Source: Thermoplasmata archaeon
Lineage (GTDB): Archaea; Thermoplasmatota; Thermoplasmata; Lutacidiplasmatales; UBA184
Reading direction: 5' to 3'
Assembly: GCA_022749995.1 (NCBI GenBank)
Contig: JAKIWO010000003.1
Location: forward strand, 9,926-73,925
Length of the DNA: 64,000 nucleotides
Shown here piece by piece: positions 5,464-29,860 of this stretch. Numbering within the stretch: the first letter of the stretch is position 1; each line of letters begins with the position of its first letter. A program made the translations under genes and the position numbers. The notes under the pieces were generated by a model. The model searched no databases. It was not told where the DNA came from and saw only the letters and a program-made list of their open reading frames with translations.

Positions 5464-7230
5464 TTACTCTCCGCCCAGGAAGCGGCGGAGCAGCGGGTTC
5501 ATCTCCATCAGCTGCTCGCGGCCCATCGCCTCGTACAGGTTGATGATGATGCCGACGGTGAGCAGCACGCCGGTGCCGCTCGCGTTGCCGACGGTGCCGA
5601 TCAGGTCGGCGCCGGCGGCGAGCGCGCCGACGGCCGCGCCGGAGATGACGGTGATGACGGGGATGTACCGGGCCAGCACGCGCCGCAGCACCCGGGGCTC
5701 CCTACGGAATCCGGGGATCTGCATGCCGCTCGCCTCGATCTGCCGGGCCACCGCCTCCGGGCCCATGTTCGTCGTCTGGATCCAGAACTTGGCGAACAGG
5801 ATCGAGCCGCCGACCATGACGGAGAAGTAGATCGCCACGTGCGCCAGGTCCTGCCACCACTGGTGGCCCACGAGCAGCTGCCCGTACAGCTGCGGGTTCA
5901 GGATCGGCAGCAGCCAGGACTCGAGTCCGTTGACCGTGGACAGGTAGTACGCCACCCCGCTCATGGGAGTGGTCTGCGAGATCCCGAGGCTCGCTGCCTG
6001 GGTCGAGCTCGACGCGTACGAGCCGAGCCACCATTGGTGCCCGATCAGCGGAAAGTGGCTCAACGTGGGGTTGGTCCAGAGCAGGATGGTGAACATGGAG
6101 ACGTTGGCGAGCAGCGCCGCCATCAGGATGACCGGAATGTTGCTGGCGTAGATCAGGCGCAACGGGTAGCGGCCCCGGGCGCCGCGCGCCTCGGCGTGGG
6201 AGAGCGGTAGCTCGATCCGCGTCGACTCGGTCCACGCGACCAGGAAGAAGATGGCGGCCGTGCCGAGCAGGGCGATCACCGGATTGGGTTGGTGGAGCAG
6301 GATCTGCTCCCAGCCACCGCCGGCGAGCCCCTGCGCGTTGGTGTGGGTGAAGAAGTAGATCGTCTTCGGGATCGTGCCCGCCGGCGGGTTGGTGGAGCTC
6401 ACCGGTCCCGGCGAGGCCGGCACCCAGTTGAGGGTCCCCTGGATGATCTGCTGCGAGACCCCCGCGGCGATGAACAGCGAGATCCCGCTACCGATCCCCC
6501 ACTTGGAGACCACCTCGTCCATCAGGAACACGAGATAGCTGCCGAAGACGAGCTGGCCGATGATGACGATCTCCGCGAGCAGCATCCCGTTGCCGGGGCT
6601 CGCGACGTTGAAGCTCGAGACGAGCGCGGTGGAAGGGAACAGGTAGCCGAAGACCTGGGGCACCGCCTCGACGAAGATCATGGCGATGACCATGACTTTC
6701 TGGGCCCCCTGGTACATCCCCTTGTCCTCGTCGTCGGTGAGGTCCAGGTTGATGATCTTCGCCCCGGTGAACAGTTGCATGATGATCGAACCGGTGACGA
6801 TCGGTCCGATCCCGAGGTGCATCAGCGTGCCCTGCGCGCCGGCCAGGATCGCGCGGTAGCTGGCGAACAGGTCGATGACGCTCGCCTGGTCGACCCCGTA
6901 GAGGAAGATGTTGGTCAGGAGGAAGTACATCAACAGGATCGAGATCACCCAGAACAACTTGGACCGGAAGTGGACGTGGCCCTTCGGCTGGGCGATCGCG
7001 GGCATCCGCGAAGTGATCGGTTTCCATCCGTAGAGCTTCGACTTGGTCCCGTCGTACGACAGGCCGAGCAGGAGCAGCCCCAGGATGCACAGCAGTCCGA
7101 GCCCGGCCAAGCCGAGCGCGATCACCGTCGGCCGGCCCCAGTACCAGTAGAGGAAGAGCAGCAGTCCACCGACGATGGCGAGCGGGAGCGCCCAGCTCCA
7201 GTTCCGTGGAGTCTCCTCGTCGGAGGCCAT
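5464..7230 (-). CDS. secY: Preprotein translocase subunit SecY (long, 588 aa)
   Basis: LMHLGIGPIVTGSIIMQL, KWGIGSGISLFIA, YASNIPVIL and GMQIPGFRR motifs; follows rpl15. Confidence 0.97.
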   Translation of the reverse strand: MASDEETPRNWSWALPLAIVGGLLLFLYWYWGRPTVIALGLAGLGLLCILGLLLLGLSYDGTKSKLYGWKPITSRMPAIAQPKGHVHFRSKLFWVISILLMYFLLTNIFLYGVDQASVIDLFASYRAILAGAQGTLMHLGIGPIVTGSIIMQLFTGAKIINLDLTDDEDKGMYQGAQKVMVIAMIFVEAVPQVFGYLFPSTALVSSFNVASPGNGMLLAEIVIIGQLVFGSYLVFLMDEVVSKWGIGSGISLFIAAGVSQQIIQGTLNWVPASPGPVSSTNPPAGTIPKTIYFFTHTNAQGLAGGGWEQILLHQPNPVIALLGTAAIFFLVAWTESTRIELPLSHAEARGARGRYPLRLIYASNIPVILMAALLANVSMFTILLWTNPTLSHFPLIGHQWWLGSYASSSTQAASLGISQTTPMSGVAYYLSTVNGLESWLLPILNPQLYGQLLVGHQWWQDLAHVAIYFSVMVGGSILFAKFWIQTTNMGPEAVARQIEASGMQIPGFRREPRVLRRVLARYIPVITVISGAAVGALAAGADLIGTVGNASGTGVLLTVGIIINLYEAMGREQLMEMNPLLRRFLGGE

Positions 7231-19473: not shown

Positions 19474-20751
19474 GTGGGAAACCCCCCCGCTCCGTTGCCG
19501 GTCACGCTCGCGGACGTGCGGGCCGCCGCGGTGCGCATCCGCGGTGCGGTCCGACGTACACCGCTGGTTCCGCTCCCCGCCTTCCCCGGGCTGCCCGATG
19601 TCCCGGTCTACCTGAAGCTCGAGAACTTGCAGCTCACCGGGGCATTCAAGCTCCGCGGCGCGACCAACCATCTGGCGCAGCTGCCGACCGAGCTCGCTCG
19701 GGCCGGTGTCGTGACCGCCTCGGCCGGCAACCACGCGCAGGGCGTCGCCTGGGCAGCGCGGTCACTCGGGATTCCCGCGACGATCGTGATGGCCACCGCC
19801 GCCTCGCCGTTCAAGGTCAGCGCGACGAGCGCCCTCGGTGCGCGAGTGATCCTACACGGCGCCGACTACGAGGAGGCGCACGAGGAGGCGGTGCGACTGG
19901 CGCGGGAGGAGCACCTGGCGTACGTGCCGCCGTTCGACGACGCCCAGGTGATCGCCGGTCAGGGGACCGTCGGTCTCGAGATCATGGAGGAGCTGCCCGA
20001 CACGCGGCGGATCATCGCCGGCGTGGGCGGCGGCGGGCTGCTGGCCGGCATCGCGGTGGCCGCCTGCGGGATCTCCGATAAGGTGGCGATCACCGGCATA
20101 CAGCCGGCCGGTGCCGACACTTTCCGCAGCTCGCTCGCGGAGGGCCGGGTCGTCGTCGGCGGCCGGCCCAGGACGTTCGCCGACGGCCTCGCCACGCGCC
20201 ATGTCGGAGACCTGCCGCTCACCCTGCTCCGGGCGCTCGGCGCGAGCGCGTACGCGGTCGACGACCTCGAGATTGCCCGCGCCGTCTTCCTGCTGCTCGA
20301 GAAGGCCAAGCTCCTCGCGGAGGGCGCCGGTGCGATCCCGCTGGCGGGCCTGCTCGCGCATCCCGAGATCGCGGCCCCGGGCCCGGTGGTGTTGGTGATC
20401 AGCGGCGGGAACATCGACCCGTTCCTCCTCGATCGGGTGTTGTGGATCGGGCTCTCCGCGGAGGGCCGTCTGCTCCGTCTCCGCGCCGCTCTCCCCGACA
20501 TTCCCGGTCGGCTGGCCGAATTCCTTACCGTGGCTGCCGACGCCGGCGCCAACGTCCGTCAGATCGAGCACGACCGGGAGTCCCCCGCCCATGGGCCGGG
20601 GGAGGTCACGGTGGAGGTGGAGCTCGAGGTGCGAAACCCGGCGCACGCCCGGGAAGTCGCAGAGGCGTACGGCCGGCGCGGATTCCCCGTGGAACGGCTC
20701 GGCGCCACCGGCGCCGAGTCGGCGCCGATTCTTCACCGGGAACAACCGTAA
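19474..20751 (+). CDS. ilvA: Threonine ammonia-lyase (PLP, C-terminal ACT domain)
   Basis: LKLENLQLTGAFKLRGA, SAGNHAQG, VGGGGLL, EGAGA, SGGNID. GTG 19474 lies about 25 nt after AAAGATATA. Confidence 0.93.
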   Translation: MGNPPAPLPVTLADVRAAAVRIRGAVRRTPLVPLPAFPGLPDVPVYLKLENLQLTGAFKLRGATNHLAQLPTELARAGVVTASAGNHAQGVAWAARSLGIPATIVMATAASPFKVSATSALGARVILHGADYEEAHEEAVRLAREEHLAYVPPFDDAQVIAGQGTVGLEIMEELPDTRRIIAGVGGGGLLAGIAVAACGISDKVAITGIQPAGADTFRSSLAEGRVVVGGRPRTFADGLATRHVGDLPLTLLRALGASAYAVDDLEIARAVFLLLEKAKLLAEGAGAIPLAGLLAHPEIAAPGPVVLVISGGNIDPFLLDRVLWIGLSAEGRLLRLRAALPDIPGRLAEFLTVAADAGANVRQIEHDRESPAHGPGEVTVEVELEVRNPAHAREVAEAYGRRGFPVERLGATGAESAPILHREQP

Positions 20752-22344: not shown

Positions 22345-22986
22345 GTGAGCTCGAGGTCGACCACGGCGGCGGTCGATCACCGAGACCTCGAGCGCGCGCT
22401 CGGCAAGCCGCATCTCCGGGTGATCGGGCTGGACGACGGTGCCTTCACCCGCCGCGCCCGGCGGGCCCCCGTTGTGGCCGTGGCGATGTCGCTGCCGGAC
22501 CTGGTGGAGGGCATCGAGCTCGGCTGGGTGGAGGTCGACGGACGAGACGCCACCGAGCGGACCATTGCGCTGCTGCAGGCCTCTCCGTTCCTTCGCGGGG
22601 CCCGGGCGATCCTGGTGGACGGGATCGCGCTCGCGGGGTTCAACCTGCTCGACCTCCGCCGGCTCTCCGCGGGGATCGGCCGACCCGTACTTTCCGTGAC
22701 GCGGCGGGCTCCCGAGTTCGTCACGATCCGCGCTGCGCTCCGCAAGTACTTCCCGCGAGAGTTCGCGGCGCGCTGGGCGCTCGTGAAATCCTGCCGGCTC
22801 TACCCAGTGCCGGTCGTGGGCCGGCCGCTGTGGGTGGCGGCGGCGGGCTGCCGGCGCGCGGAGGCGGCCGCGATCGTGCGCCGTTCGGTCGGACACGGCC
22901 GCTGGCCGGAGCCGCTCCGGCTCGCACACCTGGTGGGCCACAGCGTCGGAGCGCACGCTCGGCCGCCGCGTCGGCCCAACCCTTAA
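22345..22986 (+). CDS. DUF99 family (endonuclease V-like / endonuclease dU) protein
   Basis: RVIGLDDGAF, VDGRDAT, LVDGIALAGFNLLD, PEPLRLAH. The start is uncertain (22294 or 22345). Confidence 0.85.
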   Translation: MSSRSTTAAVDHRDLERALGKPHLRVIGLDDGAFTRRARRAPVVAVAMSLPDLVEGIELGWVEVDGRDATERTIALLQASPFLRGARAILVDGIALAGFNLLDLRRLSAGIGRPVLSVTRRAPEFVTIRAALRKYFPREFAARWALVKSCRLYPVPVVGRPLWVAAAGCRRAEAAAIVRRSVGHGRWPEPLRLAHLVGHSVGAHARPPRRPNP

Positions 22987-23011
22987 GGGAGCCGAGCGCG
23001 CTAGCGCCGTC

Positions 23012-23115
23012 GGGCCTGTAGCTTAGCCTGGACAAAGTACTGGCCTTCTAAGCCAGCAGTCTCGGGTTCAAAGGCGCCGGGGACCCCCCCGACGCGGAGA
23101 TTCCCGACAGGCCCG
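23012..23115 (+). tRNA. tRNA-Arg(UCU) with a 29-nt intron in the T-loop (about 23073-23101, position 59/60)
   Basis: Acceptor stem GGGCCTG/CAGGCCC, D-arm, anticodon stem CTGGC/GCCAG with TCT at 23047-49, T-stem TCGGG/CCCGA. The insert splits TTCAAA|T. CCA is not encoded. TTAAG lies about 28 nt upstream. Confidence 0.93.
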
Positions 23116-29594: not shown

Positions 29595-29860
29595 CAGCTG
29601 TCGTCCGGGGGGTTCGACAGGTGCCGGAGGAGTGGACCGGGCGAGAGTTTCCGGCGTCGGCGATTGCCGACCCCTTTTGAACTCGCGGCCTCTACCTTGC
29701 CAAGGTAGCGATCTTCCGGGCTAATCTACCGGCCCACATCCACTCCGGGAGCCGCCGGCTGAATAACGGTTTCTCTTCGGAGGCGGGCACGATGGCTCCG
29801 CTCGGAGAGTTCAGCCCTCGGGAACGAGGGTTGAGCAGGGAACCAGCGCTCGAGCTGCGA
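29595..29860 (+). ncRNA. Candidate structured non-coding RNA, family not recognised
   Basis: ORF-free intergenic region with nested helices, a cUUCGg tetraloop and a 9-bp GGAA-capped hairpin on the plus strand, flanked by TATA-like elements. Confidence 0.45.

Follow-up and report, generated by a model that had tools for sequence, protein, structure and literature searches.

How could an intron lodged in the T-loop of a tRNA be removed in an archaeon whose only detected tRNA-splicing endonuclease (EndA) appears, by its sequence, to be of the ordinary alpha'2 type? This question is raised by one locus in a 64,000-nucleotide (nt) stretch of DNA from a Thermoplasmata archaeon (contig JAKIWO010000003.1), the whole of which is called here the window. 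According to reviews and primary papers, EndAs of the alpha4 and alpha'2 types require a strict 3-4-3 bulge-helix-bulge (BHB) motif with outer and inner flanking helices (hBHBh'), and non-canonical introns accompany enzymes of the (alpha-beta)2 or epsilon2 type (PMC3239211, PMC4033280, PMC5829648, PMC12397907). Non-canonical tRNA introns have been catalogued mainly in Crenarchaeota and Thaumarchaeota (tRNAscan-SE 2.0 census, PMC8450103). BHB introns between T-loop positions 59 and 60 (59/60) occur in Crenarchaeota and in ARMAN; they have been described for ARMAN-2 (PMC3239211). The locus at 23012-23115 of the window (+ strand) is a genuine tRNA-Arg(UCU) gene with its T-loop split by a short intron, which confirms an earlier observation made from the letters alone (the sequence-only reading), whose coordinates and pairings proved exact on direct reading and folding. 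We consider it highly probable that this is a functional gene, the sole Arg(UCU) gene detected, with a protein-spliced 29-nt intron at 59/60 that is cut in both bulges by an alpha'2 EndA, after which the halves are joined by RtcB, and that this intron belongs to a lineage-wide set.

By direct reading, the precursor (23012-23115) begins with GGGCCUG UA GCUU AGCCUGGACA AAGU A CUGGC CUUCUAA GCCAG CAGUC and continues as UCGGG UUCAAA [GGCGCCGGGGACCCCCCCGACGCGGAGAU] U CCCGA CAGGCCC G, where the inner brackets hold the 29-nt intron. The 5' exon (nt 1-59; 23012-23072, +), recognized by direct reading, ARAGORN, and Rfam, comprises the 5' strand of the acceptor, the D-arm, the anticodon arm with the anticodon TCT (UCU) at 23047-23049 (+; direct reading and ARAGORN), the variable loop, the 5' strand of the T-stem, and U54-A59. 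The 3' exon (23102-23115, +) consists of U60, the 3' strand of the T-stem (CCCGA), the 3' strand of the acceptor (CAGGCCC), and the discriminator G73; the CCA end is not encoded in the gene. The intron, GGCGCCGGGGACCCCCCCGACGCGGAGAT, occupies 23073-23101 (+), between T-loop nt 59 and 60, and is delimited by reading, by a covariance model described below, and by intron-less orthologues. Virtual removal of these 29 nt leaves a 75-nt class I cloverleaf with all seven acceptor pairs, all five T-stem pairs, and the T-loop UUCAAAU, a sequence that ARAGORN calls as a normal tRNA-Arg(tct) of 75-76 nt. The predicted spliced junction reads ...GGUUCAAAUCCCGA..., and the sequence spanning it is GGGUUCAAAUCCCGA. 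Excision restores a canonical tRNA: in a sister family of the same order, Arg(UCU) is intron-less, and its T-arm, TCGGG-TTCAAAT-CCCGA, is exactly the predicted spliced product, so that the exact position of the junction is fixed, at the level of sequence comparison, by intron-less orthologues. Upstream of the gene, a promoter-like CCCTTAAGGG (22980-22989, +; putative, from reading) places a TATA-like TTAA core ~25-30 nt before +1, and A/T-rich boxes like it stand at equal distance upstream of the genome's other tRNA genes displayed.

The T-stem and the insert make up a 3-4-3 BHB in which both predicted cut sites fall inside bulges. The 5' strand of the central helix, U54 U55 C56 A57 (23067-23070, +; reading and covariation), lies opposite G24 G25 A26 G27 of the intron (23096-23099, +; reading and orthologues), with the pairs U54.G27, U55:A26, and C56:G25 and a mismatch of A57 and G24. 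Reading and orthologues likewise define the 5' bulge, A58 A59/G1 (23071-23073, +), with the predicted cut at 23072/23073, and the 3' bulge, A28 U29/U60 (23100-23102, +), with the predicted cut at 23101/23102. The outer helix h is the 5-bp T-stem, and the inner helix h' is the intron's own hairpin, G2-G4:C21-C23 plus C6-G10:C15-G19 (23074-23095, +), which was obtained by folding and is backed by compensatory changes. The sequence-only reading had described all of this accurately, namely, the A57-G24 mismatch, the three other pairs, the cut sites in 3-nt bulges, and the GC hairpin. Its description of the motif as relaxed holds for the single non-standard A.G pair and fails for the remainder, which is a strict hBHBh' with two 3-nt bulges on opposite strands, four positions apart, in a register common to 14 paralogues and 28 orthologues. 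The four standard central pairs that belong to the strict definition are incomplete in the target because of A57.G24, are formed in 7 of the 14 paralogues, and are also present, with a G57:C pair, in Arg(UCU) orthologues of the outgroups.

Judged by this layout, the T-arm motif is the equivalent of a canonical 37/38 intron, with the T-stem corresponding to the anticodon stem, positions 54-57 to 32-35, 58-59 to 36-37, and 60 to 38. The geometry is common to both arms, each with a 5-bp stem, a 7-nt loop, and an intron after the sixth loop nucleotide, and the intron 3' ends GGAGAU and GGAGAG are common to the T-loop introns and the genome's own canonical introns.

The gene can be followed through the family of the source organism. 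Full-length matches to the 104-nt precursor are present in 30 family genomes, and the same layout could be parsed in 28 of these, from six genera; the 28 orthologues have 28 distinct introns, 28-39 nt long, set between nearly constant exons. Pairs of the inner hairpin are exchanged in a compensatory manner, with pair 3 being C:G in 17 orthologues and G:C in 5, pair 4 being G:C in 12 and C:G in 10, and pair 5 being C:G in 14 and G:C in 9. Of the 28, 23 have AAG as the 5' bulge and 25 have ACU, AUU, or AGU as the 3' bulge. Position 57 covaries with its partner: among the 26 orthologues with A57, 25 place G opposite it, and both of those with G57 place C there. Constant exons, divergent introns, and compensated pairing are, on these comparative grounds, the mark of a structure under selection and not of a scar.

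The Arg(UCU) intron is far from alone. The source assembly (95 contigs, 1.61 Mb, 69% G+C, 87% completeness) was surveyed as a whole by eye, with a SPLITS-like script, and with a T-arm filter, and at least 14 tRNAs have an insert of 26-35 nt exactly at 59/60: Arg(UCG), Arg(UCU), Gly(UCC), Gln(CUG), Leu(UAG), Asp, His, Ser(CGA), Ser(GGA), Ser(GCU), Ala(GGC), Glu(CUC), Asn, and Lys(UUU), or about a third of the genome's tRNA genes. Scans for a T-arm plus acceptor were rejected for excessive noise when left unconstrained; when G53, C61, and U60 were demanded along with no fewer than 3 of 4 central and 2 of 3 inner pairs, they returned 26 matches, among which were the 14 true cases. Across the 14 T-arms, 92% of the cells in the proposed helices are paired, and the covariation is reached by none of 500 shuffles and vanishes when the partner strand is slid. 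At position 57, G faces C in 5 of 5 T-arms, whereas A faces U in 2 and G in 7. From these 14 T-arms with their introns, we built a covariance model, R1, which gives the target locus 53.5 bits against a best background of no more than 16 bits in the window; genome-wide, the 14 training T-arms score 36-54 bits, the next match 24 bits, and the remainder at most 17 bits. The 24-bit match (contig C45, 22899-22950) was rejected for want of a tRNA context. Nor do we claim recent transposition among these introns: the mean similarity of their cores is only slightly elevated, which a common hairpin composition would lead one to expect, and 12.5% of shuffles do as well as the best core pair, from Ser(CGA) and His. 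Position 33 of a tRNA is near-universally U, and a separate observation is that tRNA-Gly(UCC) (contig C2, 10821-10921) has the anticodon loop CCUCCAA, with C at this position, either real or an assembly error.

Introns at other sites are present in the same genome. Four tRNAs, Tyr, Met, Leu(UAA), and Trp, have canonical anticodon-loop introns; that of Tyr has four of four standard central pairs, and manual reading of those of Met(CAU) (contig C1, 230075-230176) and Leu(UAA) (contig C27, 7969-8084) finds G opposite A35 and the ends GGAGAG and GGAGAU. The A.G pair thus occurs in canonical introns as well and is no marker of non-canonical sites. Inserts of ~30 nt in the D-loop or D-arm were found in Pro(UGG) (C21, ~5580-5686, -), Arg(GCG) (C72, 1046-1151, -), Lys(UUU) (C36, ~1130-1270, -), and Leu(UAG) (C6, ~19990-20140, +), the last two tRNAs each combining this insert with a 59/60 intron; hand analysis and RNAfold gave these four no contiguous outer helix. 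The D-region introns look like relaxed HBh' motifs, which is odd in a genome with only an alpha'2 enzyme. Apart from this, tRNA-Trp (C12, 6327-6488, -) has an anticodon-loop intron of ~87 nt, and its relatives have introns of 65-97 nt with boxes resembling ...GAUGA...CUGA. These boxes are reminiscent of the tRNA-Trp intron of Haloferax, which contains a C/D-box guide.

Two PF01974 matches were detected in the genome, and both fall in one open reading frame, P0001, of 353 amino acids. PF02778 and PF01974 each match it in two stretches, that is, the N-terminal and catalytic EndA domains are present twice; P0001 aligns end to end with the alpha'2 EndA of A. fulgidus (1R0V/2GJW) and matches NCBIfam PRK09300 and TIGR00324. 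Twelve family genomes were searched, and 11 have one two-unit EndA gene each, one of these genomes being 100% complete, whereas the twelfth gave no match; a PF01974 search found neither a gene for a beta subunit nor a third EndA unit in the source genome or the 11 relatives. In the C-terminal unit, Y291, H299, and K330 are invariant across 15 aligned Thermoplasmata EndAs and would, by homology, be the catalytic Tyr-His-Lys triad described for EndA (PMC3241643). The crenarchaea-specific loop (CSL) has been grafted into A. fulgidus EndA at residues 174-178, EKGDL (PMC3241643); at this site, P0001 shows no insertion of the kind of the CSL or the ARMAN-specific loop (ASL) and has an equal-length segment, GSRVGHR. 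Comparison with Thermoplasmata in which T-loop introns are few or absent (Methanomassiliicoccus, Sysuiplasma, and others) revealed no family-specific insertion or obvious substitution pattern, and a lineage-specific loop was considered and rejected, the extra residues at ~97-126 and 236-241 being common to Thermoplasmata without T-loop introns, and the latter segment being present in M. jannaschii EndA as well. With a two-unit build and no insertion at the CSL site, P0001 appears to be an ordinary alpha'2-type EndA. The sequence-only reading had predicted an EndA of relaxed specificity, and the predicted protein, a plain two-unit alpha'2 enzyme with no extra subunit, does not bear this out. 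A gene for RtcB is also encoded in the genome.

It appears, then, that the precursor folds so that the T-stem, the pairing of positions 54-57 with the intron's 3' end, and the intron hairpin make an hBHBh' that copies the geometry of the anticodon arm; that a single alpha'2-type endonuclease would cut within both 3-nt bulges; and that RtcB would then ligate the halves, restoring the T-loop UUCAAAU. Transcription, cleavage, and ligation of pre-tRNA-Arg(UCU) are inferred. The most economical view is that the resident alpha'2 enzyme can act on the T-arm BHB owing to its likeness to the BHB of the anticodon arm: the two agree in stem length, loop size, and cut register, and the genome's canonical introns have the same 3' ends and the same A.G pair. 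Several points weigh against this account. The central helix contains an A.G mismatch, alpha'2 enzymes are reported to need a strict BHB, and a BHB intron set in the D-loop was barely cleaved by A. fulgidus EndA (PMC3241643; PMC3239211; PMC5829648). Moreover, the source is a metagenome-assembled genome (MAG) that is 87% complete, so that a second EndA or Arg(UCU) gene could lie on missing contigs.

The alternative that survives best is that the EndA of this lineage has been cryptically broadened without a loop of the CSL or ASL type and so permits T-loop introns with an A.G helix as well as D-loop introns; the gene and its intron would remain as described. In its favor, A57 faces G in the target, in half of the paralogues, and in 25 of the 28 orthologues, the four D-region introns listed above look relaxed and HBh'-like, and the D-loop substrate was cut poorly by the A. 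fulgidus alpha'2 enzyme in vitro (PMC3241643). The protein itself offers little to this idea, with a CSL site of the same length as in A. fulgidus EndA, neither insertions nor an obvious substitution pattern particular to the family, and neither a beta subunit nor a third unit in the 11 relatives, and the 59/60 motif is otherwise strict 3-4-3, with an A.G pair that recurs in the canonical Met and Leu(UAA) introns. We regard a broadened enzyme as unlikely, while recognizing that the conserved A.G pair and the D-region introns point to a degree of tolerance and that the latter keep the idea under consideration.

Retention of the insert, with the tRNA working through an enlarged T-loop or an extra arm, is very improbable: it would break the universal 7-nt T-loop, the intron-less orthologues have a standard loop, the ends of the insert are held in exact BHB register (bulges AAG and ACU or AUU), and the motif stays constant in introns that range from 19 to 39 nt. 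The 3' part of tRNA genes is a frequent target of integrases, and this preference, together with the poor scores from general tRNA finders, is what could be said for a pseudogene or integration scar with a mobile-element remnant in the T-arm, a reading that is effectively refuted by conservation, given that this is the only Arg(UCU) gene found, that the site is filled in 28 orthologues from six genera with exons kept, introns diverged, and pairing maintained, that 13 other tRNAs have the same precise layout, and that the locus has a promoter-like box upstream and neither direct repeats nor an integrase context. An intact second Arg(UCU) gene, which the sequence-only reading had named, in combination with the lack of a spliced product, as a sign of such a dead copy, was not found in the 87% complete assembly.

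Such genes are easily misread, as the sequence-only reading had anticipated. On the native Arg(UCU) locus, ARAGORN wrongly puts the 3' end inside the intron (23011-23090), and the Rfam tRNA model RF00005 gives it 32.3 bits, just above the gathering score of 29, in an alignment that collapses the T-arm. A second gene in the window, tRNA-Ala(GGC, G3.U70) at 29633-29735 (-), with a 29-nt 59/60 intron at 29647-29675 and an R1 score of 47.4 bits, is reported neither by ARAGORN nor by the Rfam search at the gathering score. Just past the end of the window, tRNA-His(GUG) (contig C23, 75192-75300) has a 33-nt 59/60 intron and is called by ARAGORN as an over-long tRNA of 95 nt. Runs of ARAGORN with unlimited intron length produced, in this GC-rich genome, dozens of false tRNAs with kilobase "introns", and these calls were dropped. 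Given the mis-calls by ARAGORN and Rfam, estimates of completeness and codon capacity based on tRNAs can be wrong for MAGs of this kind.

The affiliation of the organism bears on how these introns are distributed. The nearest relatives of the EndA include "Ca. Lutacidiplasmatales archaeon GcC5-34" and AcS MAGs from acid soil, at 58-63% identity, in agreement with the earlier placement of the DNA in Thermoplasmata, and on this similarity the family would be of the Ca. Lutacidiplasmatales type. The source itself is an uncultured soil archaeon. R1 finds matches in all 75 sampled family genomes (seven genera), 4-14 in each and down to 3 under stricter settings, numbers that are lower bounds since R1 under-counts short introns and missed a 19-nt case. 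Genera with low counts have subsets of the same tRNAs, namely, Arg(UCU), Asp, His, Gln, Ala(GGC), Asn, and Ser(GGA). Named Lutacidiplasmatales-type MAGs give 9-14 matches, and the other two families of the order, represented by six genomes, 0-1 each. Beyond the family, a class-wide sample yielded 1-4 matches in each of 27 genomes and none in the remainder.

The outgroup matches inspected lie mainly in Arg(UCU), which in seven genomes has a 59/60 intron of 21-22 nt and a perfect 4-bp central helix (G57:C), frequently alongside a canonical intron; outgroup genomes with this 59/60 intron include UBA10834, RBG_19FT_COMBO_56_21, CP070748, and OY970070. Other outgroup matches inspected were in Arg(CCG), Ala(CGC), and Gly(UCC), and further families have 59/60 introns in Met, Leu(UAA), and His. 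In Ca. Methanomethylophilaceae archaeon DJKA113 (L151, 1501-1597), Arg(UCU) has a 19-nt 59/60 intron, AGUCAGAAAGGGCCGAAAA, again with a perfect 4-bp central helix, which is mis-called by ARAGORN and unreported by R1; the Arg(UCU) T-loop intron hence extends into host-associated Methanomassiliicoccales. Its presence in several other Thermoplasmata lineages implies that this intron probably predates the family. The simplest reading is that an old, class-level Arg(UCU) intron came first, that sporadic gains occurred elsewhere, and that a large expansion took place in the family. As an observation apart from this scenario, many outgroup Arg(UCU) and Arg(CCG) genes (L113-L123) have two introns, at 37/38 and at 59/60.

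The broader proposition, which we put forward tentatively as a real possibility somewhat short of an expectation, is that a whole family maintains T-loop introns in about a third of its tRNAs, along with D-loop sites, on a single ordinary alpha'2 EndA, in breach of the rule of co-evolution between introns and enzymes. If the alpha'2 enzyme indeed processes all of these introns, the rule that non-canonical introns co-evolve with (alpha-beta)2 or epsilon2 enzymes fails, a T-arm that mimics the anticodon arm would suffice for an intron to colonize a new site, and the likely founder would be the class-wide intron of Arg(UCU). Dozens of conserved T-loop substrates facing one alpha'2 enzyme constitute a natural test of whether position or motif shape sets the limit to cleavage, and they pose the question of whether the A.G pair in the central helix matters.

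Within the literature that we could consult, which lies largely outside subscription journals, no paper describing T-loop introns in Thermoplasmata, Lutacidiplasmatales, or Methanomassiliicoccales was found; the word "intron" is absent from the description of the order Lutacidiplasmatales (PMC9287336), and a comparative paper on Methanomassiliicoccales does not discuss tRNA introns (PMC4153887). The closest known system is that of ARMAN-2 (Ca. Micrarchaeum), where tRNA-Cys(GCA) and tRNA-Pro(GGG) have, as here, protein-spliced introns at 59/60 in a BHB formed with the T-stem, that of Pro(GGG) being a strict hBHBh' and that of Cys a relaxed hBH of 13 nt (PMC3239211). ARMAN-2, however, has a broad-specificity epsilon2 EndA that is built of three units and bears a specific loop (PMC3239211), whereas the enzyme here appears to be a plain alpha'2, and, unlike in ARMAN-2, the introns are GC-rich hairpins of 26-35 nt and affect a third of all tRNAs.

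Thermoproteales and other Crenarchaeota and Thaumarchaeota resemble the present family in having lineage-wide BHB introns outside 37/38, in some tRNAs two at a time, and in having introns that are likewise missed by several tRNA finders (Sugahara 2008 and Fujishima 2010, as cited in PMC4033280; PMC8450103). Those lineages have an (alpha-beta)2 EndA with the CSL, many sites, relaxed motifs, and intron similarity suggestive of transposition (PMC4033280); here, by contrast, most introns outside 37/38 sit at the single site 59/60, in a near-strict motif, the EndA is of the predicted alpha'2 type, and the best pair of intron cores is no closer than shuffles. The pre-tRNA-Glu(UUC) of M. kandleri, with an HBh' intron in the D-loop, is likewise euryarchaeal and is accompanied by an EndA without CSL or ASL, but this enzyme is an (alpha-beta)2 and the intron is the single one of its kind, as opposed to more than a dozen alongside a putative alpha'2 in the present case (PMC5829648). 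The canonical 37/38 introns cut by the alpha'2 EndA of A. fulgidus (1R0V/2GJW) share with those described here the geometry and the type of enzyme and differ in that the T-arm takes the place of the anticodon arm; the 3' end of the intron is shared with this genome's own canonical introns. Taken together, these comparisons identify the Arg(UCU) insert as an intron of a known kind at a known non-canonical site that is, as far as we have found, new for this lineage and for this enzymatic context.
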